Part shown: in pieces, positions 49,712 through 64,000 of the stretch
How positions within the stretch are numbered: position 1 is the stretch's first letter
How the letters are laid out: each line of letters starts with the position of its first letter
Origin: an uncultured Lewinella sp.
GTDB taxonomy: Bacteria > Bacteroidota > Bacteroidia > Chitinophagales > Saprospiraceae
Assembly (NCBI GenBank): GCA_964594535.1
Contig: CAZQNE010000006.1
Location: forward strand, 19,496 to 83,495
Length of the DNA stretch: 64,000 nt
Direction of reading: 5' to 3'
Notes under the pieces: model-generated
Told to the model about the DNA's origin: nothing
What the model saw: only the letters and a program-made list of their open reading frames with translations
Databases searched by the model: none
Made by a program: the position numbers and the translations under genes

Positions 49712-50629
49712 TCACCGGCCCGCCAAAAACTCCTGGATCGCTTCCCGGGTCGGGGCGGAGGGCTGGGCCCCAAGTACGGTGACGGCCAGGGCGGCGGCGG
49801 CACTGGCGAACCGCAGGGCCTCGGTAACGGACTTCCCCTCGGAAAGGGCAACGGCCAGGCTGCCGCAGTACACGTCCCCGGCAGCGGTAGCATCGATGGC
49901 CTTCACCGGGAAGGCTTCCTGAACGTGCACCCCCCCGGAATCAGCCAGCAGCGAACCGCCTTCGCCCAGCGTGACTACCGCCACCGGGCAGCCCAGTTCC
50001 AACAGCCGCCGGGCGGCGCGTTCGGCGGAGGGGCGGTCGTTGACGGGAATGTCCGTCAGGGAGGTGGCCTCCGTTTCGTTCGCGACGATGATCGGCCCGT
50101 AGCGCATGAGTTCCGCAGGGAAATCGATGGCCGGGGCGAAATTGTACAGAATGGGAACGCCGGCCGCGTGGGCCAGCTCCATGGCCCGGGATATGGAGGG
50201 CAGGGGAATTTCGTTCTGCACCACCAGCATATCGGCCCCTTCGATGGCCGTTCTGGCGGCGGTCACGCGCTCCGGAGTCAGGCGGTAATTCGCTCCCGGT
50301 GCCACGGAGAGGTAATTGTTGCCGTCCCCGCCGATCATCACCAGGGCGTGCCCGCTGGCGATCCCCTCCTCCTGGTAGACGTAGGTCGTATCGATCCCGT
50401 CCGCCCGGTAATTGTCCACCATTCGGTCCGTGTAGGCATCGTCGCCGACAGCATTCACGAAGGTGACCGCCCCCCGCGCCCGCGCCGCCGCTACGGCCTG
50501 GTTGGCCCCCTTGCCTCCGTACACCTGGACGAACTCACCGTTGGTGACGGTTTCGCCCAGTCGGGGCAGGCGGGGCATCTTCATGATGAGGTCGACGTTG
50601 GAGCTACCCACCACCGTAATTTTTGCCAT
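49712..50629 (-). CDS. rbsK: ribokinase (PfkB family; possibly deoxyribokinase)
   Basis: GSSNVD, GGKGANQAVA, QNEI, NETEA and DATAAGD motifs. Confidence 0.9.
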   Translation of the reverse strand: MAKITVVGSSNVDLIMKMPRLPRLGETVTNGEFVQVYGGKGANQAVAAARARGAVTFVNAVGDDAYTDRMVDNYRADGIDTTYVYQEEGIASGHALVMIGGDGNNYLSVAPGANYRLTPERVTAARTAIEGADMLVVQNEIPLPSISRAMELAHAAGVPILYNFAPAIDFPAELMRYGPIIVANETEATSLTDIPVNDRPSAERAARRLLELGCPVAVVTLGEGGSLLADSGGVHVQEAFPVKAIDATAAGDVYCGSLAVALSEGKSVTEALRFASAAAALAVTVLGAQPSAPTREAIQEFLAGR

Positions 50630-50631
50630 AC

Positions 50632-51639
50632 CTACACGTAGTTACGGGCCGCCACGATCAGCACCAGCCCCAGAATGAAAAAGACGAACATACCGGTCAG
50701 CAGTCCGCTGGTTTCCCGCTTCGCCGCCGCGAACTCCTTCCACACGAACACCCCCCAGAAGGCCGCGATCATCGTAGCCCCCTGCCCGAGCCCGTAGCTG
50801 ATGGCCGGCCCCGCCGTTCCCGATGCGATGAGGTTGAACTCCATGGCGGCGCACCAGATGACCCCACCCATGATTCCGATGAGATGAACCTTCGTCGTAC
50901 CCCGGCGGAAGTAATCACCGTAGCTCACCGCCCCGCCCTGGATGGGCCGGTACATGAAGTAGGTATTGAATACGAAGTTGGACAAAAAGATGCCCACCGT
51001 AAACACGAGCATGGCCGAATAGGGCGTCAGCTGCCCCGCCTGGGGCGTCACGAAGTCGTCGGCCATGGCATCGGCCACGAAGCGGTAGAAAAACCCCATC
51101 AGCACCCCGGCAACGACCGAAATCAGAATACCCTTCCCCTTCGTCTGCTCTTCATCGACGGGCAGTTTGGCGTAGGCGCGGGCGTTCAGGAGCAGGGCGA
51201 CCACCACCAGGAGGGTGCCCCCGAAGAGCAGGTAGGGGTTGCCGAGCGGTTCGCCGATGTAGTTCACGACCACCCCGATGACGAGCGCCAGGCCCACCGC
51301 GATCGGAAAAGCGACCGACATGCCCGCGATAGCCGTAGCCGCCACGACCAGCAAGTTAGCGATATTGAAGACCACCCCGCCCAGGAAGGCACTGCCCAGG
51401 GCGGTGGCATCGGCTTGCCCCAGATCGGTGAGAAAACTTCGCCCCCCCTGCCCCGCGCTTCCCAGGGTAAAGCCGAACAGCAGGGTGGTAAGGATCAGCC
51501 CGATGGAGTAGTCCCAGTAATACAACGGAAACTCCCACCGCTTCGGACTCAACTTAAGGGTATTGGCCCAGGAGCCCCAGCCCAGCATGGTGATGAAGCA
51601 GAAGACGATGGCCAGGGAGTAGGATTCGACGATGTACAT
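50632..51639 (-). CDS. GRP family (glucose/ribose porter) sugar transporter
   Basis: 10 TM segments; GWGSWAN and SYGLGQGATMIAAFWGVFVWKEF motifs. Confidence 0.85.
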   Translation of the reverse strand: MYIVESYSLAIVFCFITMLGWGSWANTLKLSPKRWEFPLYYWDYSIGLILTTLLFGFTLGSAGQGGRSFLTDLGQADATALGSAFLGGVVFNIANLLVVAATAIAGMSVAFPIAVGLALVIGVVVNYIGEPLGNPYLLFGGTLLVVVALLLNARAYAKLPVDEEQTKGKGILISVVAGVLMGFFYRFVADAMADDFVTPQAGQLTPYSAMLVFTVGIFLSNFVFNTYFMYRPIQGGAVSYGDYFRRGTTKVHLIGIMGGVIWCAAMEFNLIASGTAGPAISYGLGQGATMIAAFWGVFVWKEFAAAKRETSGLLTGMFVFFILGLVLIVAARNYV

Positions 51640-51640
51640 A

Positions 51641-52357
51641 CTAGCCGAAGCGTTTTTTGGCCTCCTCCAGTATGCTCACCGTAGCCGTAGCACCGCAGCG
51701 TTTGCAGCCTACTTCCCTTACCATCAGTAGTTTGTCGAGGTCGCGCACCGCCCCGGAAGCCTTCACCTGCGTCCCCGCCCCGGTACTGGCCACCATCAGT
51801 TCCAGGTTTTCGCGGGTAGCGCCGACGTAGCTGTACTTACCGTCTTCCCCCTTACTGAAGCCGAATCCGGTCGAGGTTTTGACGTATTCCGCCCCCACCT
51901 CCGTGCATATCTCACAGAGCTTTCGGATGTGGTCGGGTCGGTCGACGTAGTCCGTCTCGAAGATGATCTTCAGGCTGGCCCCGTGTGCCGTGCACGCTTT
52001 TTTGACGGCTCCGATTTCTTCCCGCAGGTAGTCCCAGTCTTCCTCCAGTGCCCGGGCGATATTGATGACCATATCGATCTCCTGGGCACCGTTGCGGCAG
52101 GCATCCTCGGTTTCGTATACCTTGACGGGAATGGTCTGTATACCGGCCGGAAAACCGACTACGCAGCCCACCCTTACGTCGGAATCGGCGAGTTGCTCCC
52201 GGGCCGAGGCCACCATGTAGGGCTTGACGCACACGCTGGCTACCCCGTAGCGGCGGGCTTCGTCGCAGGTTTGCCTGAGGTCTTCCTCCCCCAGTTTGGG
52301 GTGCAGAATGGTGTGGTCGATCAGTTGCGCCAGTTCGGCTACGGTGGGGGTATCCAT
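51641..52357 (-). CDS. deoC: deoxyribose-phosphate aldolase
   Basis: IDHTILHP, EIDMVIN, LKIIFET, VKTSTGF and VKASG motifs. Confidence 0.95.
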   Translation of the reverse strand: MDTPTVAELAQLIDHTILHPKLGEEDLRQTCDEARRYGVASVCVKPYMVASAREQLADSDVRVGCVVGFPAGIQTIPVKVYETEDACRNGAQEIDMVINIARALEEDWDYLREEIGAVKKACTAHGASLKIIFETDYVDRPDHIRKLCEICTEVGAEYVKTSTGFGFSKGEDGKYSYVGATRENLELMVASTGAGTQVKASGAVRDLDKLLMVREVGCKRCGATATVSILEEAKKRFG

Positions 52358-54332: not shown

Positions 54333-55220
54333 ATGCGTTCCCTACTGCTGTTGCTCGTCTTACTGCCCGCCCTGGTGAGCGGGCAAACCCGCCTGATCCT
54401 CGATGCCGATACCGCCAATGAGGTGGACGACCCCTTTGCGATCATTCGACTGCTGCTCGACCCCGCCGTGGAAGTGACGGCGCTCAACGCCACCCAGTGG
54501 GAGGCCAGCCACTACCGCGTGCCCCAGACCATGATGATGAGCCAGCGGATGAACAACGCTCTGCTCGCCTACCTGGAAATCGACGACGTACCCAGCCTGA
54601 AGGGAGGCACGGACCGGATGTACGACTGGGGCGATCTGGCCCAGCCCTCCGCCGCCAGCAACAATATCATTCGGCAGGCGCAGGCTCTTCCCGAGGGGGA
54701 GCGACTGACCATCATTGCCCTGGGTGCCCTGACCAACGTAGGCTCGGCTATCGTACAGGAGCCCGCGATCGCCGACCGTATCGACCTGTACTGGCTGGGC
54801 TCCCAGTATGATTTTACGGAGCGGATCATGACCAAGCGCGACTTTAACGTCGTCATGGACATTCAGGCGCTGGAAGAGGTACTGAACAGCAACATCAACC
54901 TCCACGTGCTACCCGTCAGCGAGGCCAATGCCCTGACCTTCACCCGGGAGGAGGTAGCGGAACACCTCCCCCCCGACCATCCCGTTACCGGCTTTCTCCT
55001 GCGCCTGTGGGACGACCACGTCGATGGCGGCCGGCTCGAGCGCGTGCTGTGGGACATCGGCATCGTGGAGGCTTTTCTGCGCCCCGGGCTGTTCACCGCC
55101 GAGGAGGTGCCCCTGCCCCGGGCGAACGGCAGTCGGATGGTTACCTACTTCCGGGATATCGACGTACCGGTCCTGAAGGAGGACTACTGGCGGGCGGTGG
55201 TTGAGGGGCTGAGGGACTGA
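54333..55220 (+). CDS. secreted nucleoside hydrolase (IU/IAG-NH family)
   Basis: DADTANEVDD Asp cluster; LGALTN, DFN and LWD motifs; signal peptide from ATG 54333. Confidence 0.9.
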   Translation: MRSLLLLLVLLPALVSGQTRLILDADTANEVDDPFAIIRLLLDPAVEVTALNATQWEASHYRVPQTMMMSQRMNNALLAYLEIDDVPSLKGGTDRMYDWGDLAQPSAASNNIIRQAQALPEGERLTIIALGALTNVGSAIVQEPAIADRIDLYWLGSQYDFTERIMTKRDFNVVMDIQALEEVLNSNINLHVLPVSEANALTFTREEVAEHLPPDHPVTGFLLRLWDDHVDGGRLERVLWDIGIVEAFLRPGLFTAEEVPLPRANGSRMVTYFRDIDVPVLKEDYWRAVVEGLRD

Positions 55221-55263: not shown

Positions 55264-55770
55264 ATGAAAGTGCAACTAAAGAAGGCGGACATCACCACCC
55301 TTTCCGTCGACGCTATCGTCAATGCCGCCAATTCCTCCCTCCTCGGCGGCGGCGGGGTGGACGGGGCCATCCACCGGGCGGGCGGGCCGGCAATTCTGGC
55401 GGAGTGCCGTCAGATCCGCAACCGGCAGGGGGGCTGCAAAACCGGGGAAGCAGTCATCACCACCGCCGGTCGCATGCCGGCCCGGTACGTCATTCATACC
55501 GTCGGTCCCGTATGGCGGGGCGGCAGTAACGGCGAAGCCGAACTACTGCGATCGTGTTACGAAAAGAGCCTTCAACTAGCGGAAGACCACGAGTTGACTT
55601 CCGTCGCCTTTCCGAACATCAGTACGGGTATTTACGGCTTTCCGAAAGAGCGGGCGGCGGAAATCGCCGTGGAGGCGGTGCGGAACCACCACCCTTCGCA
55701 GGTACGGGAGGTCTACTTCGTTTGTTTTGATGCGGAAAACCACCGTTTGTACAGCTCGCTTTTGGATTGA
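55264..55770 (+). CDS. ymdB: macro-domain O-acetyl-ADP-ribose deacetylase (YmdB-like)
   Basis: [29 protein letters not shown] and [13 protein letters not shown] motifs. Confidence 0.92.
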
Positions 55771-55998: not shown

Positions 55999-57291
55999 TT
56001 ACCGCCGGCTCTCGTAAAACTGCACTACCTCCGGATCGACCATTACGTCACGCAGCCGCAGGGGCTGCCGCAGTACGATCCCCTCCAGGGTACGGCAGCG
56101 ACTGAGGGCAACGTAGGTCTGTCCGTGCTCGAAGGCCCCCGAGCGGCCCAGGTCGACGACGATCTTGTCGAAGGTCTTGCCCTGGCTCTTGTGGATGGTC
56201 ACCGCCCAGGCCAGGCGCACGGGGAGTTGGCGGTAGGTACCCAGGGTTTCGGTGGCGATCTTGCGCAGGTCGCTGCCGTCGGCCGTGTAGCGGATGATGT
56301 CCCACTCGTGGTACTCGACTTCTACCTCGCTGGGCTTGCCGTTCTCCACGATTTCGATACGGACCGATTCCGGTTTACACTCCAGTATCGTGCCGATGGT
56401 GCCGTTGACGTAGCGGCGATCGGGGTCGTTGCGTAGCGTCATGACCTGAGCGCCGACCTTGAGTTTGAGGATCTGGGGGACGGGGAAGAGCTTTTCGGGA
56501 AAGTTGCCCTTCACCTCGGCGAAGTAAAGTTGTTCGGGGGCAGCGAGCCCGGCCAGGGCGTTACCGTTGATGCGGGTTACGGTGGCGTTACGGGCGGCTA
56601 GCGTGAGGTAATTCTCCCCCTCCGGCGGTACGAAGTCGGCCTGGTAGCGAGCGTTGAGGTCGGCGAGTTCGTCGCGGTCGACGGTAGCGTTGCGGATACT
56701 TTCGAGCAGGCGGAGGAAGTAGCGGCTGTCCTGGCGGTAGACCTTACTCAGTTCGATCATTTCCAGGTCGATGTGATCGAGGGCATCGGCGCTGAAGAAG
56801 TAGGGGCTGGCGTAGCGTAGGCTGAAAAACTCCCGCTCCGTCTGGCTACTCACTACGGGCGGCAACTGAAACAGATCGCCGAACAGGATCAACTGTACCC
56901 CCCCGAAGGGCTTACCGCTGCCGCGGTTGAGCTGAAGCCCGTAGTTGATCGCCTCCATCACGTCGGCGCGGACCATGCTGATCTCGTCGATGACCAGCGT
57001 TTCCAGGTTCATGAACACGCGCTTGTTGCGCCGGTTGGGCCGCACGTCCTTCGACTGTAATAGGCGCGGGGGAAAGTTGAAGAAGCTGTGGATGGTTTGC
57101 CCGCCGACGTTCAGGGCGGCGACTCCGGTGGGGGCCAGTACCACCACGTTCTTGCGGGTGCTACGCTTGAAGATTTGCAGGAGGGTCGACTTGCCGGTCC
57201 CCGCCCGCCCGGTGATGAACAAGTGGTCGCCGGACTCCATGCGCTCCAGGGCGTAGTTGAATTCGGTGCTCAGTTTGAGGGCTTCGGGCAT
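55999..57291 (-). CDS. Pif1/RecD-like SF1B helicase
   Basis: GRAGTGKST, APTGVAA, IDEISM, GDLFQLPPV, WAVTIHKSQG and YVALSR motifs. Confidence 0.92.
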   Translation of the reverse strand: MPEALKLSTEFNYALERMESGDHLFITGRAGTGKSTLLQIFKRSTRKNVVVLAPTGVAALNVGGQTIHSFFNFPPRLLQSKDVRPNRRNKRVFMNLETLVIDEISMVRADVMEAINYGLQLNRGSGKPFGGVQLILFGDLFQLPPVVSSQTEREFFSLRYASPYFFSADALDHIDLEMIELSKVYRQDSRYFLRLLESIRNATVDRDELADLNARYQADFVPPEGENYLTLAARNATVTRINGNALAGLAAPEQLYFAEVKGNFPEKLFPVPQILKLKVGAQVMTLRNDPDRRYVNGTIGTILECKPESVRIEIVENGKPSEVEVEYHEWDIIRYTADGSDLRKIATETLGTYRQLPVRLAWAVTIHKSQGKTFDKIVVDLGRSGAFEHGQTYVALSRCRTLEGIVLRQPLRLRDVMVDPEVVQFYESRR

Positions 57292-57357: not shown

Positions 57358-58017
57358 GTGGCTGATTACGTTCCCTTCGATCCCACCCCCTCTTCCCCCG
57401 CCGGGATGGAGGTGCTTTCCCGGAATTTCTACCGGATGATGAAGACCCGGCGCACGGTGCGCGAGTTCGACCCCACGCCCATCCCCCGTCCGGTCATCGA
57501 GAACCTGCTGCGGGCGGCGGCGACCGCCCCTTCGGGAGCCCACAAACAACCCTGGCACTTCTGCGTGGTGACCGATCCCGAAATCCGCCGGCTGATCCGG
57601 GAGGCCGCCGAGCGGGAGGAGTACGAAAACTACCACGGGCGGATGTCGGACGACTGGCTGGCCGACCTCGCTCGGTTCGGTACCGACTGGCACAAACCCT
57701 TCCTTACCGAGGCGCCCGTGCTCATCGCCGTCTTTAAAAAACCCTACGATTTGGGTGCCGACGGGGAGCGGCAGAAGAACTACTACGTCAACGAGAGCGT
57801 CGGCATCGCCTGCGGATTCCTGATCACCGCCATCCACCGGGCCGGGCTGGTTACGGTGACGCATACGCCCAGCCCCATGAATTTCCTGCAGCGTATCCTG
57901 AATCGACCGGAGAACGAGCGGGCCTACCTGCTACTGCCCGTAGGTCTACCGGCGGCGGGGGCGCGGGTGCCGGCTATCACCCGGAAACCTATGGAGGAAA
58001 TACTTAGCTTTTACTGA
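57358..58017 (+). CDS. iodotyrosine deiodinase-like nitroreductase-family flavoprotein
   Basis: RRTVREF, APSGAHKQPW, EEYENY, NYYVNESVGIA and THTPSPM motifs; probable GTG start 57358 (ATG 57406 possible). Confidence 0.85.
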   Translation: MADYVPFDPTPSSPAGMEVLSRNFYRMMKTRRTVREFDPTPIPRPVIENLLRAAATAPSGAHKQPWHFCVVTDPEIRRLIREAAEREEYENYHGRMSDDWLADLARFGTDWHKPFLTEAPVLIAVFKKPYDLGADGERQKNYYVNESVGIACGFLITAIHRAGLVTVTHTPSPMNFLQRILNRPENERAYLLLPVGLPAAGARVPAITRKPMEEILSFY

Positions 58018-58191
58018 TGAATCCCGGGCGGTATCTATTTAATATTCGTCAAACCGTCCGTTTTGAGGATAGCGGATTGTTGACGTAAACCCCGAGGGGC
58101 TCGCTCAATACGGTCAGAGCGTGTTGGGAAGAACGTGTTCGGACCCTTAGTTTCCCCCGCGGGTGGCAGAGACTCCCTATATTCATCGGTA

Positions 58192-58356
58192 TAAGTAGTC
58201 GGACACAATTATTCACACAATTTCCCTCGCTGTCTCCTGCGGCTACCCTTCGTTAGAAAGCCTCGCCAACACGGAGGCGTTGCCTGCGTTTTCTGCCTCG
58301 GTTATCCACACGATCCACCTGATGGAAATGGCGTAATAAATATGTCCGACTACTTA
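58192..58356. mobile_element. MITE-like element, IS630/Tc1-type ends with TA target duplication
   Basis: Perfect 14-bp terminal IR TAAGTAGTCGGACA (58192-58205 / 58343-58356), 20/22 over 22 bp; TA at both outer ends; no ORF inside. Confidence 0.65.
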
Positions 58357-58423
58357 GTCATCCAATCTTCCGGGCCCTGCCCGCACCCGCGCGCCGCCGC
58401 CCGCCTCACTCACCCCAGTACAC

Positions 58424-61400
58424 ATGCCTCCCCCCAGCCGCCCCCTGCCCCGCCGCCCCGACCCCCTGGTACTGAACCTGCGCGGCACCCGGACGGATTC
58501 CCTTGACGGTCGGTCCGACCCCATCGGCGCGGGCGAATACGTAGTAGCAGTACGCTACGACCTGAGCGGGGCCTCCCGGGGCGGTAGCTACCCCCAGACT
58601 GAAACCATCGACCGGGAAATCGTCGGGCTGACCGCCGGCGGGGGCGTGGAATGGTACGGATTGGGCGAAGACCTGCCCGCCGTCACCGGTTCACCCGTGG
58701 ACGTCAGCAGGGGGCAGACCACCTTTACTCTGCCCCGGACGCTTCGGGGGGATAGCGCCCACCGCGGATTTGTACAGGACCTGGTGATCAACACCTTCGC
58801 CAAGATCAAGCGGCGTAAGGAAAGCCCCCTGGGTCGGGCCACGGTCGACCGGGTACTGGGGGAAACCTCCCTCGATAAGGTCAGGGAAACGCTGCTGGAA
58901 GCCGCCGGGGAGTTCGTCGGCCTCCGGATCGCCAGACGCATCGACGATCAGAAGTGCAGCCGGCCCGGATTGCACCGCATCGACTACACGGGGAAGTTGA
59001 CGGACCACGTCGGCACGGTGGCTACCAACCGGCCCATCCTGATTTTCATCCACGGGACGATCTCTAACTTCACGGACGGTTTTGAAGGCATCGAACCGGC
59101 TTACTGGGCCGACATCCATGCCGCCTACGGGGGGGAGGTATTCGCCTTCAACCACCGTACGATTACCGAATCCCCCGTTCGCAACGCCCTGGATTTGCTG
59201 GCCGCTTTACCCGAGGGTTGCGAAGTGGATCTGGTCACCCACTCCCGGGGCGGACTGGTGGGCGATGTCCTGGCCCGCTGCGACCTGCGGCTGGGCGACG
59301 GGATCGGCTATACGGAGGTAGAAATTAACACCATCCGGGCGGATGAAAGCGCGGCCCAAAAGAGTTGGGAGGCCGACCGGGAGTTGAAACACGACCACGA
59401 TGGCGAACTCTCCGAGGATCTGCGGGAGGGCCTGCTGGCCTCCGCCAGGAAGCTGGTATCCACCGGTCGGGCTACGGCCGAACTGGCGGCGGAGCTCACG
59501 GAAATTACCCGAATTGCCCCCGGCCGGCGCCTCAGTGTGCGTCGGATCGTACGGGTAGCCGCCCCGGCCGCCGGAACGACGCTGCTGGCCGAGCGCCTCG
59601 ATCACTTACTCAACGCCCTGCTGAATCTGGCGAAGTACGCCGCCGGGCCGGGCTGGGCACCCGTGGTCGACAGCCTGCGCACCTTCGCGATCGCCGCCGT
59701 CGAGGAACGCCACGACCCCGCCGCCTTCCCGGGGCTGTACGCCATGGTACCGGGGCGGGGGTTTTCCCGCATCAACAACCGGAATCTAACCCTCGATCTG
59801 CCGTCCGATCTCATCAACGTAGCGGGTAATTCGGAGGCGGGCGGGGGGCCCCTGCAGTCGCTGAAGGTCATCCTGAGTAACCTCTATTACTGGCAGGCCA
59901 ACGACTTCGTGGTGGATACGGCGAGTATGTCACGGGGGTTGTTCCGAAGGGCCAGCAACCGCACGCTGACCATCACCAGCGAACGGGTCGATCATTTCTC
60001 CTATTTCCGGGTGGGGAGCTTTATGCAATTGGTGACCAGTCTGCTCCTATGCGGAAAGCCGGAGGGTGAGGGTCTGACGGAAGGAATAACCTTCGTCGAT
60101 ACCACCTTCGACCGCACCGATAAGGGGGTGTTAGTCGACAAACTCTACGATCCCGGCCTGCTGCTGCCGGAACGTATCGTGGAGGACCGCCCGATCGTCG
60201 TTCTGCTGCCGGGCATCATGGGCTCGATGCTGTCCGTCGACGGGGACCTGAAGTGGATCCGGCCCGCCGCCCTCATCAACGGGGCCCTCGTCACTGACCT
60301 GGCCGCCGATGCGGAGGTGACCGCCCCGGGGGTCGTAGCCGACTACTACCGCGATCTCGGCGATCACCTGAAACGGGAAGGCTTCGCGGTACGCGTGTTT
60401 CCCTACGACTGGCGGCGGAGCGTGACCGAAAGCGCGGGGCTACTGCACCGGGAGCTTCAGGAATTGGGGGATCGCGGTCAGCCCATCACGTTCGTGGCCC
60501 ATTCCATGGGCGGGCTGGTCCTGCGGCAGTGGATGTTCGACCACCACGATGCCTGGTCGCATCTGCGCGTGGACCGGGGCGGGCGGGCAATCTACCTCGG
60601 CACCCCCTGGCGGGGCTCCCACCTGATCACCGAGCTGCTCACCGGCCGCAGCCGCCGGGTGAACGAATTGCACCTGCTCGACCGAAAACACGGTAAGCGG
60701 GAGTTGCTGAATGCCCTGGGGATGCACCGCGGGATCTTCGAGCTGCTCCCCCTGGATGACGAACGCCTGGTCGACCCCGAAGAATGGAAAAGCCTCGAAC
60801 GCGTCATCGGCCCGCGCGGTATGGCGCCGATCCGGGACACCATGATCGACTACCTCCGGCAATGGCGCAACCGGGTGCGTACCGGCCTGGATCGCCTGAC
60901 GGACGAGGACTACGCGGCCATGTACTACGTCGCCGGCCGGGCCCCGGCGACCATTGACGATTACGAGGTCCGCTACAGTTGGTTTCGTTGGCGGGGAAAA
61001 CTCATCTTCGGGGACACCGAGCGCGGGGACGGGAGCGTCAGTTGGGCGAGGGGCATCCCACGCCGGATTGCCAACGACCGCCGCTACTTCGTCAAAACGG
61101 AACACGCCCAACTGGCGAACGACCCCACCCTGTTCCCCGGCCTGGTTGAATTAATCCGCCGGGGAACTACCCGCCAGCCGGCCTTCCAGACCTCCGTGGC
61201 CGGAAGCCGCGGCGGCACCGCGGTAACGTCTTCCCGCCACCGGATTCCCGCAGCCGTTACGGACCAGTCCGCGATAGCTATCCTGATGGGGGAAACCGCC
61301 CCCGCCCCCGGTAGCGCCAAACCGGAACGATTACCACTGCGCGTGGAGGTACTGAACGGCGACTTACGGTGGGCTTACTTTCCGGTGCTGGTCGGCCACT

Positions 61401-64000
61401 TCGAGCACGACGGCATCGTAAGCGCCGAAAAAGCCATCGACACCTACCTGAACCAGACACTGAGCGAACGCCACCAACTCGGGTTCTACCCGGGTAAGAT
61501 CGGGGAACAGGAGGTCATCATCCACCACGATAACCAACCCCTGGGCACGGTGGTGGTCGGCCTGGGCGAAAAGGAAAACCTGACGGGCTTTCTCCTCTCC
61601 AAGACGGTAGAAAAAGGGATGCTCAAGTACGCCATTTTCCTGCGTGACAACGAGGTTCAGGATACTCACTTCCCGGAAGACGGCCACGGCATCAGCGTGC
61701 TCTTCATCGGCAGCTACTACGGGCAGATGCCCCTGCGCGAAAGCATCCGCAGCATCCTACTCGGCATCCGGCAGGCCAATGAGGTCATTGCCGGCTTCCC
61801 CGCCACGGGGCCGAACGGGACCTTACGGCCCATCACGACGGTAGAGTTCGTGGATTACTACGAAGACCGCGCCTACGAAGCCTATAAGTCGCTCCAGGAC
61901 CTACGCGACCTGCACGTCATCGACGAACTGGAACTCGCCCCCGCCATTCACCCCGGCCTGGGTCGCAAACGGCGCTTCCTCCGCGATGGTAGCCGCAGTT
62001 GGTGGCAAACCTTTACCACGCGGCAGGTGGCGGTACAACAACAAAAGGGGAAGGAAACGCGCCACAAACTGTCCTTCAGTACCTACAACCGCAGCTCGTC
62101 CGTCACCACCGACGAAGTAGACGGCAATCTCGAACTGGCCCGCTTCATGGCCGAAGAACTGTCCAGCGACCCGCGGTGGAACCGGGAGAACGCCAAGGTC
62201 CTCTTCGAGATGTTGCTGCCCAACCGGTACAAAGATTTCATCCGCAACCACCGCAACGTGACCTGGCGGATGGACGCCGCAAGCGCCATCTTTCCCTGGG
62301 AGATGTTCCACGACGTGGAGGTTGGGGACGTGCCCACCTTCGTACGCTCCGGCATGGTGCGCCAGCTCTACTCCGGCACGGCGGAGGTTCGCCCCGCCCT
62401 GGTACGGAGTATGCGGGCATTGGTGGTAGCCAACCCCCCCTTCACCAGCGAGGATCTGCCCGACCTGCCCGGTGCCGAGCGGGAGGGGACCGAGGTCAGT
62501 CAGCGGTTGACGGCCGGCAGCTTCACGGTAGTGCAGGAAATCGGGGCCGGCCCCGTATCCATTCTGAAGGCCCTGTTCCGGCAGGGGTACAAGATCATGC
62601 ACTTTGCCTCCCACGGTCGCTTCGATCCGGATAGCGAGCGGCACGGGATCGCCATCGGAAAGAACCAGTTCATTAGCCCCGGCACCCTCCGTCAGGTATC
62701 GGCCATTCCCGAACTCGTCTTCGTCAACTGCTGCTATCTGGGTAAACTCGCACCGGGACGGGAAAAATACTACCGCCACCGCCACCGGTTGGCCGCCAAC
62801 ATCGGCACCCAACTCATCGAGAGTGGGGTGAAGGCCGTCATCGTGGCCGGCTGGGCGGTGGATGACGCGGCCGCGCTCACCTTCGCCACGACCTTCTACG
62901 ATAATTTGCTGCGGGGAGAATACTTCGGCGAATCGGTCCGCCGCGCCCGCCGCGCCTGCTGGGAACGGCACGACCGCACCAATACCTGGGGAGCCTACCA
63001 GTGCTACGGCGACCCCTTCTACCGGGCCACGCTGGTGGGAGAAACCGAAAAGAGCGAACGTGAACTGACGCTGGAGGAAGAGATCGTGCTGGAACTGGAC
63101 AACCTCATCTCCGCTGCCGAAAGCGTCACCGGCGGGGCCCGGGAGGAAGCCACCCGCCTGCGGGCTACCGCCCAGGATCTCCTGCGCCGCGCCGAGCTGC
63201 ACGGATACTACGGCCCCCGCATCGTAGAACGGGAGGCCAAGTTCTACATCTACATCAACGAATACGGGGCCGCCATCGAGCGCTACGAGATTCTTTTCGC
63301 CCGGGATCACGGCAGGTATTTGGTACGCAGCTACCTGGATTACCTCTATACCCTGATCCATCACCAAGCCACCGACACCAGTCTGGATAACCGGCAATCG
63401 GCCGCGGCCATTCGAAAGACCGTGGCAAAAATCCGGGCCCACCGGATCTCGGAGCCGGGGGTAGCGATACATACCCTGCTGGCCAGTGCCTACAAACGGC
63501 TGGCGACGAAGGTCAACCTTACGGAATCCCGAAAATACCTGCGGCAATCGGCCCGTAGCTACCTCACGGCCGCCCGGGAGGTCGGCGTGCGCGAACGGGC
63601 TGCTATTTACCACGTCACCAGCTACCTCTCATTATCCGCACTGGCCGATCTGGGGCTGGAGCGTACCGACTTCGACCCGGCGGCTGATCTCGGGCTGGCC
63701 CCGCCGGCCTACTTCGACCTGTGGCGGGCCGGGCACAGCTACCGGGAGCGGGGTAGCGCCTACGCCCGCCTGCGGGGTACGAACCTCTTACTCAGCGAGA
63801 TCGTCTACCGCGGCTGCCACGACCAGGCGGGAGGCAGTGAACGCTGGGGAGGAATGACGCTACGGCAACGGGCCCGCCAACTGGAATCGCTCTACCGCCG
63901 GCAGTTCCGCGAGGGCTACAACCTGCGCGACCTGTACGGACAGTTGGAACATCTGGACATTCTGCTCAGCGTCTGCGCCAAACTGGGGAAGCGGCCCCTC
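58424..64000 (+). CDS. giant multidomain protein (>1859 aa, 3'-truncated): two alpha/beta-hydrolase lipase domains, macro-like domain, CHAT caspase-like protease, TPR-like tail
   Basis: Read by hand as open from ATG 58424 to the window end; IFIHG/THSRGG/NDFVV/DHF and LPGIMGS/AHSMGG/GDGSV/TEH motifs; HFASHG, FVNCCY and WGAYQCYGDP CHAT motifs. Confidence 0.88.
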   Translation, partial: MPPPSRPLPRRPDPLVLNLRGTRTDSLDGRSDPIGAGEYVVAVRYDLSGASRGGSYPQTETIDREIVGLTAGGGVEWYGLGEDLPAVTGSPVDVSRGQTTFTLPRTLRGDSAHRGFVQDLVINTFAKIKRRKESPLGRATVDRVLGETSLDKVRETLLEAAGEFVGLRIARRIDDQKCSRPGLHRIDYTGKLTDHVGTVATNRPILIFIHGTISNFTDGFEGIEPAYWADIHAAYGGEVFAFNHRTITESPVRNALDLLAALPEGCEVDLVTHSRGGLVGDVLARCDLRLGDGIGYTEVEINTIRADESAAQKSWEADRELKHDHDGELSEDLREGLLASARKLVSTGRATAELAAELTEITRIAPGRRLSVRRIVRVAAPAAGTTLLAERLDHLLNALLNLAKYAAGPGWAPVVDSLRTFAIAAVEERHDPAAFPGLYAMVPGRGFSRINNRNLTLDLPSDLINVAGNSEAGGGPLQSLKVILSNLYYWQANDFVVDTASMSRGLFRRASNRTLTITSERVDHFSYFRVGSFMQLVTSLLLCGKPEGEGLTEGITFVDTTFDRTDKGVLVDKLYDPGLLLPERIVEDRPIVVLLPGIMGSMLSVDGDLKWIRPAALINGALVTDLAADAEVTAPGVVADYYRDLGDHLKREGFAVRVFPYDWRRSVTESAGLLHRELQELGDRGQPITFVAHSMGGLVLRQWMFDHHDAWSHLRVDRGGRAIYLGTPWRGSHLITELLTGRSRRVNELHLLDRKHGKRELLNALGMHRGIFELLPLDDERLVDPEEWKSLERVIGPRGMAPIRDTMIDYLRQWRNRVRTGLDRLTDEDYAAMYYVAGRAPATIDDYEVRYSWFRWRGKLIFGDTERGDGSVSWARGIPRRIANDRRYFVKTEHAQLANDPTLFPGLVELIRRGTTRQPAFQTSVAGSRGGTAVTSSRHRIPAAVTDQSAIAILMGETAPAPGSAKPERLPLRVEVLNGDLRWAYFPVLVGHFEHDGIVSAEKAIDTYLNQTLSERHQLGFYPGKIGEQEVIIHHDNQPLGTVVVGLGEKENLTGFLLSKTVEKGMLKYAIFLRDNEVQDTHFPEDGHGISVLFIGSYYGQMPLRESIRSILLGIRQANEVIAGFPATGPNGTLRPITTVEFVDYYEDRAYEAYKSLQDLRDLHVIDELELAPAIHPGLGRKRRFLRDGSRSWWQTFTTRQVAVQQQKGKETRHKLSFSTYNRSSSVTTDEVDGNLELARFMAEELSSDPRWNRENAKVLFEMLLPNRYKDFIRNHRNVTWRMDAASAIFPWEMFHDVEVGDVPTFVRSGMVRQLYSGTAEVRPALVRSMRALVVANPPFTSEDLPDLPGAEREGTEVSQRLTAGSFTVVQEIGAGPVSILKALFRQGYKIMHFASHGRFDPDSERHGIAIGKNQFISPGTLRQVSAIPELVFVNCCYLGKLAPGREKYYRHRHRLAANIGTQLIESGVKAVIVAGWAVDDAAALTFATTFYDNLLRGEYFGESVRRARRACWERHDRTNTWGAYQCYGDPFYRATLVGETEKSERELTLEEEIVLELDNLISAAESVTGGAREEATRLRATAQDLLRRAELHGYYGPRIVEREAKFYIYINEYGAAIERYEILFARDHGRYLVRSYLDYLYTLIHHQATDTSLDNRQSAAAIRKTVAKIRAHRISEPGVAIHTLLASAYKRLATKVNLTESRKYLRQSARSYLTAAREVGVRERAAIYHVTSYLSLSALADLGLERTDFDPAADLGLAPPAYFDLWRAGHSYRERGSAYARLRGTNLLLSEIVYRGCHDQAGGSERWGGMTLRQRARQLESLYRRQFREGYNLRDLYGQLEHLDILLSVCAKLGKRPL

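Follow-up and report, generated by a model that had tools for sequence, protein, structure and literature searches.

A giant Lewinella protein joins two lipase-fold hydrolases, a macro-fold domain and a predicted CHAT protease in one chain: a candidate self-processing death module

In this study, we describe a giant gene at the end of a 64,000-nucleotide stretch of DNA from an uncultured Lewinella sp. (contig CAZQNE010000006.1, positions 19,496 to 83,495 of the forward strand; hereafter the window) and relate the conserved features of its product to known death effectors controlled by proteases. From N- to C-terminus, the protein carries a beta domain, an alpha/beta-hydrolase of the family DUF7379, a second hydrolase resembling LCAT and LPLA2, a macro-fold domain of the Peptidase_M17_N type, a CHAT domain and a helical tail resembling the family TPR-S. 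This architecture we consider near certain. Arginines conserved in isolation, in the N-terminal piece and in the linkers around the hydrolases, mark candidate cleavage sites, and by analogy with studied systems we tentatively propose that the protein is a solitary, cytoplasmic, self-processing pro-lipase death module, a chain of events which, taken as a whole, falls just short of what we would call likely. A role in biological conflict or cell death, however it is carried out, appears probable to us.

The reading frame opens on the plus strand at ATG 58424, the earliest start codon past an in-frame stop at 58355, and continues to the window edge at 64000 for 1859 codons uninterrupted by a stop, as had been claimed in an earlier note on this DNA made from the letters and a list of open reading frames (ORFs). 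Under the local base composition an open frame this long has a probability of about 4e-22; GC content at third codon positions is 0.80, and none of the remaining five frames exceeds 575 codons. The gene is absent from the ORF track solely because the lister skips ORFs that leave the window. Its full length is given by a near-identical protein of 1877 residues (P0001, locus L001 on a 62-kb JGI metagenome contig), which differs by two substitutions (Ala versus Val at position 261, Arg versus Gln at position 1254). Extended in this way, the gene has its stop 18 codons past the window edge, and a convergent BNR_4 gene follows. A hydropathy heuristic found no segment of transmembrane-level hydrophobicity and an N-terminus unlike a signal peptide, in line with the absence of a signal peptide that the earlier note had claimed. 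The gene and the domains of its product are placed in the window as follows.

58424-64000, plus strand: giant ORF, residues 1-1859 of 1877, the final 18 codons and the stop lying outside the window (open frame; P0001 at L001)
58451-58813, plus strand: N-terminal beta-rich domain, residues ~10-130, with three conserved arginines (R52, R96, R114); proposed as a pro-piece (AlphaFold2 strands at 15-130; low conservation)
59030-60103, plus strand: DUF7379 alpha/beta-hydrolase, residues ~203-560, with a long helical insert at ~288-368 (Pfam PF24096; conservation)
60185-61168, plus strand: LCAT/LPLA2-like alpha/beta-hydrolase, residues ~588-915, with LPGIMGS, YDWR, AHS694MGG, D869 and H894 (Pfam LCAT; PDB; Foldseek match 4x92)
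61331-61918, plus strand: macro-fold domain of the Peptidase_M17_N type, residues ~970-1165 (Foldseek; M17_N profile matches; leucine aminopeptidase 3jru; conservation)
62189-63013, plus strand: predicted CHAT caspase-like protease, residues 1256-1530, with H1397 (HFASHG) and C1437 (FVNCC) (Pfam; dyad conservation; Foldseek)
63071-64000, plus strand: all-helical TPR-like tail, residues ~1550-1877; proposed sensor (AlphaFold2 helices; distant-tail profile)

Pfam matched three of these domains directly (DUF7379, 1.6e-30; LCAT, 1.6e-8; CHAT, 3.5e-29). Structures were predicted with AlphaFold2 from 44-sequence alignments as two models, of residues 1-960 and 940-1859, with a mean predicted local distance difference test score (pLDDT) of 84.4 and 84.7, respectively. 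Conservation was assessed in a MAFFT alignment of 120 homologues and, independently, in 74 full-length copies from GTDB species-representative genomes. The homologue alignment shows a conserved enzymatic core (DUF7379, LCAT-like, M17_N-like and CHAT domains), the N-terminal ~200 residues and the TPR-S-like tail being the most variable parts. The two hydrolases, the CHAT domain and the helical tail described in the earlier note are fully supported by Pfam, AlphaFold2, Foldseek and the alignments; the eight catalytic residues it had named (Ser274, Asp494 and His524; Ser694, Asp869 and His894; His1397 and Cys1437) all lie at the positions given and are kept in 109 to 120 of the 120 homologues and in all 74 genome copies.

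The CHAT domain matches its profile (PF12770) at 102.6 bits against a cutoff of 24, residues 1256-1530 spanning profile positions 3-289 of 289, and H1397 and C1437 are present in 120 of 120 homologues and 74 of 74 genome copies. Its closest structures in Foldseek are the Craspase TPR-CHAT protease (7zoq_A, 6.8e-7), SAVED-CHAT (8tl0, 7.8e-6) and DdvA (8rw5, 7.4e-5). By profile, dyad and fold we predict it to be a peptidase. The tail behind it is all-helical in the AlphaFold2 model, as expected of the TPR-like tail in the earlier note. No Pfam family, TPR-S (PF20308) included, directly matches the tail of the window protein; that tail is nonetheless matched (E = 6e-17) by a profile made from distant homologues' tails, the majority of them with Pfam TPR-S, which places the TPR-S region at residues 1613-1737. 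Pfam names this family, which is matched directly in homologues, "Tetratricopeptide Repeats-Sensor", and it was reportedly defined in work on conflict systems, probably that of Burroughs and colleagues.

N-terminal to the protease lie two alpha/beta-hydrolases. The N-terminal 203 residues, taken in isolation, have no Pfam match, and a helical segment (residues ~138-177) lies between the R114 site and DUF7379. The latter (106.9 bits against a cutoff of 33) shows an oxyanion HGT at 210-212, the nucleophile elbow T-H-S274-R-G-G, D494 and H524, the triad being conserved in 119, 120 and 120 of the 120 homologues, respectively, and throughout the 74 genome copies. For the second hydrolase, the LCAT profile match (PF02450; 34.6 bits, cutoff 21) extends over no more than positions 77-178 of the 392 in the profile, while a sequence search of the PDB ties residues 640-749 to LPLA2 and LCAT (LPLA2 4x90, 4.4e-5) and Foldseek finds LPLA2 4x92 (E = 2e-10; target-normalised template modelling (TM) score 0.61; root-mean-square deviation 5.4). 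The LCAT/PGAP1-like LPGIMGS and YDWR motifs pointed out in the earlier note are kept among homologues, with P596, G597, D662, W663 and R664 invariant. Every significant fold match of the N-terminal half is a lipase, esterase or phospholipase (LPLA2, LCAT, the type VI secretion system (T6SS) phospholipase Tle4, BlEst2, family I lipases and PlaB), the hits not being assignable to either hydrolase individually.

The two hydrolases differ in how strictly they are kept. The triad of the LCAT-like domain is found in 109 (S694), 117 (D869) and 117 (H894) of the 120 homologues and in every one of the 74 genome copies; the S694 column (60503-60505) holds Gly in 10 of the 120, and a subfamily of ~1,400 residues is without the whole LCAT-like module. 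Unlike this nucleophile and module, the DUF7379 triad is never lost among the homologues examined. From this pattern, the essential effector would seem to be DUF7379, with the LCAT-like domain as an accessory, optional module.

The domain between the hydrolases and the protease had been called a macro domain, a description that stands for the fold and not for the family. Foldseek aligns residues ~970-1165 with TTHA0132, macroH2A1.1, MACROD2 and the N-domains of M17 aminopeptidases (target-normalised TM-scores of 0.75 for 2dx6, 0.66-0.67 for macroH2A1.1 and 0.56 for MACROD2). The canonical Macro family (PF01661) matches none of 30 homologue domains and nothing in the window protein, whereas Peptidase_M17_N is matched in 14 of the 30 (best 1.3e-5) and passes the Pfam threshold in one homologue (P0054); a profile of the domain also matches the leucine aminopeptidase 3jru (E = 0.0099), with a VVGLG motif common to both. 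On these sequence profiles we rejected a canonical Macro identity in favour of a Peptidase_M17_N-like one, and the domain should not be read as binding ADP-ribose. With the M17 N-domains it shares the fold and the VVGLG-type motif, in which G1046 is invariant and G1048 near-invariant among homologues; it differs from M17 aminopeptidases in having no M17 catalytic domain attached and in a family-specific motif of its own, GH..D....E..D, in which at least 90% of homologues have D996 and D1006 and all have G991-H992 and E1002.

The features most suggestive of self-processing came from a scan of the alignment for conserved arginines standing alone in otherwise unconserved stretches, for which pLDDT was used as a proxy of flexibility and exposure. 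AlphaFold2 places its low-confidence loops at residues 1-9, 50-52, 112-116, 472-474, 489-494, 562-574 and 937-948. Five sites were found; the next residue is usually Gly, Ser or Ala, and small residues come before.

58577-58579, plus strand: R52, candidate P1 site (Arg in 117 of 120 homologues and in all 74 genome copies; surroundings variable; pLDDT below 50 at 50-52)
58709-58711, plus strand: R96, weaker candidate (Arg in 107 of 120 and 67 of 74; mean pLDDT ~83 over residues 91-100)
58763-58765, plus strand: R114-G115, candidate at the end of the N-terminal beta domain (Arg in 119 of 120 and 74 of 74; Arg-Gly in 102 of 120; pLDDT below 50 at 112-116)
60122-60124, plus strand: K567-G568, candidate in the linker between the two hydrolases (Arg in 105 of 120 and 71 of 74; pLDDT below 50 at 562-574)
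61208-61210, plus strand: R929-G930, candidate between the LCAT-like and macro-like domains (Arg in 100 of 120 and 71 of 74; Arg-Gly in 58 of 120)

Arginine fills 5 of the 10 columns classed as isolated and conserved, compared with 18 of all 236 conserved columns. Four of the five candidate sites pass this filter; R114 fails it because G115 is conserved as well. A sixth lone arginine, R1323, was rejected when its conservation was not reproduced in the 74 GTDB copies. R52, R114 and site 567 fall within low-confidence loops, and R929 opens a low-pLDDT linker, the loop at 937-948 starting just after it. The sites bracket modules: R114 comes after the beta domain, position 567 between the hydrolases and R929 between these and the M17_N-CHAT-TPR-S half; 567 and 929 lie in the linkers on both sides of the LCAT-like module. 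In the ~1,400-residue subfamily, reference residues ~530-960 are missing, the LCAT module between 567 and 929 included, and an R|[GSA] site is retained in the sole remaining linker in 9 of 9 members examined. The motif, small-small-R|G/S/A, fits the P1 specificity of PsCaspase, the protease of type IV Thoeris, which strictly needs Arg at P1, slightly prefers small flanking residues and degrades many cellular proteins after Arg (Rousset et al., 10.1101/2024.10.24.620036). The earlier note had suggested proteolytic release of the N-terminal lipases; the lone Arg-(Gly/Ser/Ala) sites in or near flexible loops, together with this literature, strengthen the suggestion, and we lean slightly towards cleavage of the linkers by CHAT, which we infer from the alignment and the models.

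That a caspase-like protease can license an alpha/beta-hydrolase is already known. In conflict systems, certain caspase domains are always paired with an alpha/beta-hydrolase gene (Kaur et al. 2020, PMC7159879), and in one such pair LcHydrolase is a zymogen that LcCaspase cuts at two conserved R|G sites, its N-terminal and C-terminal pieces being toxic when co-expressed (Evans et al. 2025, PMC12642450). The giant protein is similar in that a caspase-type cysteine protease is genetically coupled, here by fusion, to a lipase-fold alpha/beta-hydrolase, with conserved Arg-Gly-type sites, variable sensor domains on the protease and a presumed death-effector outcome. It differs in being one polypeptide that holds protease, two hydrolases and sensor, not separate genes, and in having two distinct hydrolases and an M17_N/macro-fold domain. 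The new elements are one chain that combines sensor, protease and M17_N-like domain with two different hydrolases, and the conserved arginines in its pro-piece and linkers.

Other known systems can be compared as well. The earlier note had drawn parallels with Craspase and the gasdermins; these hold as a functional analogy only, with no Cas7-11 or gasdermin partner seen. Craspase TPR-CHAT (Csx29 of type III-E) also fuses CHAT to TPR-type helices and is the top structural match of the C-terminal half, whereas its TPR part is N-terminal and docks on Cas7-11; the helical tail of the giant protein is C-terminal, its gene has no CRISPR genes nearby, and its presumed substrate is itself and not Csx30. 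Like PsCaspase and the type III-B SAVED-CHAT/PCaspase, the giant protein would be a sensor-activated protease with Arg at P1, and 8tl0 is a structural match; those systems use a TIR or Cas10 signal maker and cleave other proteins, and no such partner is conserved here. With LCAT/LPLA2, Tle4 and PlaB, the best matches of its hydrolase half, it shares the alpha/beta-hydrolase fold, the Ser-Asp-His triad and the AHSMGG elbow, at only 15-18% identity, and the eukaryotic enzymes are secreted or lysosomal while the domain here would sit within a cytoplasmic multidomain chain.

The family is widespread, with relatives encoded in at least 431 GTDB species genomes. Among the 80 best-matching loci of these, from which taxonomy and locus counts are drawn, most belong to Bacteroidota (Lewinellaceae/Saprospiraceae, Flavobacteriaceae, Chitinophagaceae, Cytophagales), with some from Limnohabitans, Caldimonas, Blastocatellales and Ignavibacteriaceae; further homologues, from the protein search, belong to Variovorax, Piscinibacter, Methyloversatilis, Lyngbya, Polyangiaceae and Chthoniobacter. 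The closest genome among the matches listed is a Lewinellaceae metagenome-assembled genome, at 51-55% identity. DUF7379 alone forms 2,141 clusters at 50% identity (E ≤ 1e-3; 564 at E ≤ 1e-30), and nearly all of its top hits are proteins of ~1,750-1,850 residues with the same giant architecture and the domain at a constant offset. Hydrolase and CHAT are fused in a single ORF throughout the family. The termini are polymorphic: one homologue has an N-terminal pYEATS/YEATS domain (P0016) and two have a C-terminal Peptidase_M15_3 (P0076, P0081). Three homologues of ~2,360-2,410 residues (P0006, P0008, P0012) carry about 500 extra unannotated residues. Source names are limited to "CHAT domain-containing", "DUF7379 domain-containing" and "lecithin:cholesterol acyltransferase", and no paper on DUF7379 or on this fusion was found in the literature searched, in keeping with the earlier note, which held that homologues might be annotated as CHAT proteins and knew of no functional description.

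On this basis, we propose the following order of events. A trigger, for instance a component of a phage or a signal of stress, would be sensed by the variable TPR-S-like tail, possibly in concert with the macro-fold domain and its conserved pocket, and sensing would turn on CHAT, probably via oligomerisation by analogy with other caspase-type proteases. CHAT would then cut after R114 (perhaps after R52 and R96 too), at position 567 and after R929, stripping off the N-terminal pro-piece and freeing the two hydrolases both of one another and of the half that holds protease and sensor. Once released, the DUF7379 and LCAT-like hydrolases would degrade membrane lipids, with cell death or arrest as the outcome, in an abortive-infection-like or programmed-death-like system whose sensor, protease and effectors are all in one polypeptide. 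This reading draws on the conserved architecture and triads, the lone arginines, the R|[GSA] site in the linker of the shorter subfamily, the LcCaspase and PsCaspase literature and the lipase fold matches, and also on the solitary gene, the variable termini (pYEATS and Peptidase_M15_3 in some) and the TIR (4) and TPR-S (3) neighbours described below. In its fullest form, an entire immune or suicide pathway within a single chain, in which TPR-S sensor and M17_N/macro domain gate a CHAT that cuts its own chain at up to five arginines and frees two lipases, the proposal is slightly more doubtful.

Several points weigh against this proposal. We infer the cleavage, the lipid substrate, the trigger and the defence role alike, the lipid substrate from similarity of fold. 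The cuts in LcHydrolase lie inside the hydrolase, whereas the candidates here lie in the pro-piece and linkers. Site 567 is Lys in the window protein, with Arg in most homologues, and R96 sits in a confidently folded turn, which makes it the weakest candidate. The conserved arginines could also have other roles, such as inter-domain salt bridges or the binding of lipid head groups. No family of PADLOC-DB v2 (2023) matches the giant protein at E ≤ 0.1, and an NCBIfam scan of the whole protein likewise gave zero matches. Its 130 immediate neighbours across the family are mostly housekeeping genes (alpha-amylase, PFK, S16, SRP54), and it is syntenic and vertical in a sister Lewinellaceae genome (L087) and in Dokdonia species, which is untypical of mobile defence islands.

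The neighbourhood, which the earlier note had suggested comparing with defence islands, was also surveyed. Among the 74 loci with a complete gene, clustering of neighbours found no conserved partner gene, nor did 6 hand-inspected loci; the most recurrent neighbour cluster occurs in 16 of the 74 at scattered positions, and tight same-strand coupling is rare (upstream 7 of 69, downstream 11 of 72). A conflict-type minority is present among the 130 immediate neighbours (TIR_2 in four cases, TPR-S in three, a few PADLOC matches). Neighbours encoding Cas7-11/gRAMP or Csx30 are absent from L001-L006, L087 and the 74 GTDB loci, and no gasdermin partner was seen at the inspected loci. The surroundings are mostly housekeeping genes with no conserved partner and with sporadic TIR, TPR-S and STING genes. 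The giant gene is self-contained, vertically inherited in its Lewinellaceae lineage and outside any obvious defence island. In the window, the genes upstream of it are these.

54333-55220, plus strand: IU_nuc_hydro gene, upstream block
55264-55770, plus strand: stand-alone Macro protein, upstream block, 2.6 kb upstream of the giant gene
55999-57291, minus strand: PIF1-family helicase, upstream block
57406-58017, plus strand: nitroreductase, upstream block, immediately 5' of the intergenic region of the giant gene
58018-58423, plus strand: upstream intergenic region with a 13-nt inverted repeat (no Rfam match)

In the sister genome, from the same metagenome, the order is IU_nuc_hydro, Macro, PIF1, nitroreductase, giant gene and Lyase_1, with DUF3575 and Uma2 genes in addition and without the downstream BNR_4.

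Alternatively, the protein could be a physiological enzyme of regulated proteolysis and lipid remodelling, serving for example stress responses, membrane turnover or developmental death of environmental Bacteroidota and not phage defence, with linker cuts possible as maturation. Mostly housekeeping neighbours, vertical synteny in the sister Lewinellaceae genome and in Dokdonia, the lack of a mobile-element signature over the at least 431 species genomes that encode a relative, and the PADLOC result all argue for it. The fast-evolving termini set against a conserved enzymatic core argue the other way, as do a tail from a family that Pfam names a sensor, the sporadic TIR, TPR-S and STING neighbours, and the nearest experimentally studied logic, which is the activation of a death effector (LcCaspase/LcHydrolase). 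We consider this explanation unlikely.

We are more doubtful still of a small-molecule pathway with the giant protein as effector, in which the macro-fold or TPR-S domain would bind a nucleotide-derived messenger, for example an ADP-ribose derivative from a TIR protein encoded elsewhere, and CHAT would be switched on in this way instead of by an invader sensed directly. Its attraction is the macro fold with its invariant G991-H992 and E1002 and its D996 and D1006, each kept in 90% or more of homologues, combined with TIR_2 in 4 of the 130 immediate neighbours, a stand-alone Macro gene 2.6 kb upstream and the Thoeris precedents, namely macro domains that sense histidine-ADP-ribose in type II and a TIR-made signal that activates a caspase-like protease in type IV (10.1101/2024.10.24.620036). 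Yet no TIR or cyclase partner is conserved in the 74 loci, and the upstream Macro gene is part of a syntenic nucleoside-metabolism block. The domain itself matches Peptidase_M17_N and not Macro PF01661; nucleotide binding is not known for M17_N domains, which also counts against a messenger of this kind.

It seems improbable, too, that CHAT is mainly a promiscuous Arg-specific executioner acting in trans, in the manner of PsCaspase or PCaspase, with the linker arginines as pseudo-substrate, auto-inhibitory or incidental features and the hydrolases working unreleased. The invariant dyad and the degradation of many proteins after Arg by PsCaspase are consistent with it, whereas it leaves unexplained two hydrolase triads conserved in cis, the Arg sites flanking the LCAT-like module and the linker site kept in the variant without that module. 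Least probable is an exported Tle-type interbacterial lipase toxin that CHAT would process after delivery, which has in its favour fold similarity to Tle4 (the only link to T6SS Tle effectors), the C-terminal Peptidase_M15_3 of some homologues and PG_binding_1 proteins in 6 of the 130 immediate neighbours, and against it the absence of a signal peptide or transmembrane segment, of Por_Secre_tail, PAAR, VgrG and Rhs features in the giant protein (Pfam), and of conserved adjacent immunity or secretion genes in the 74 loci.

Some further observations concern the surroundings of the gene. The intergenic region before it holds a perfect 13-nt inverted repeat, AAGTAGTCGGACA, at 58193-58205 (plus) and 58343-58355 (minus), with arms 137 nt apart and 69-231 nt before the ATG; it is unique in the window, with 0.03 expected. 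As a conserved regulatory element it was rejected, since neither the sister locus nor any other locus retrieved contains it and Rfam gives no match; it could be a small insertion resembling a miniature inverted-repeat transposable element, or an operator pair. Farther upstream in the window (49712-52357, minus strand), genes for a PfkB kinase, a sugar/ureide-type permease and a DeoC aldolase resemble nucleoside/deoxyribose catabolism, with a sulfatase further upstream. The contig of P0001 runs on past the window edge and encodes an HTH-Fic protein and an ABC exporter some 4-7 kb downstream of the giant gene (L001:19550-20746).

At other loci, Neolewinella xylanilytica has a cytidine-deaminase-like gene followed by prok_STING ~5 kb downstream of the homologue (L002:17344-18720), which looks like a separate small conflict system. 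In Methyloversatilis thermotolerans, a gene for a 263-residue Peptidase_C14 (caspase) ends 30 bp before the homologue starts (L006:6179-6970) and may supply this lineage with an additional protease partner. A 443-residue MAP3K_TRAF_bd/TPR-S protein adjoins another homologue in convergent orientation (L069:15131-16459, minus strand). The recurrent Endonuclease_NS and cNMP_binding neighbours were set aside as most likely lineage synteny, their relative positions being constant in Dokdonia-type loci (confirmed with Pfam for one locus).

In conclusion, if the proposed self-processing module is real, it would be a self-contained bacterial analogue of a caspase-plus-executioner cascade, with zymogens and protease covalently linked, spread over hundreds of species of bacteria, for the most part environmental Bacteroidota and Proteobacteria. 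It would represent an extreme, fused form of the rule that site-specific proteolysis licenses prokaryotic death effectors, in which sensor, protease and two lipases are made at fixed 1:1 ratios from one gene, and would offer a tractable system for the switching of caspase-type proteases and the activation of alpha/beta-hydrolases by cleavage, for which the candidate sites are precise predictions open to test. It would also provide a function for DUF7379, a family of ~2,100 clusters (50% identity) that occurs in at least 431 species genomes. Should it confer phage resistance, it would be a defence system missed by PADLOC-DB v2 (2023), in lineages little covered by defence studies, namely Bacteroidota and especially Lewinellaceae, Chitinophagaceae and Flavobacteriaceae.

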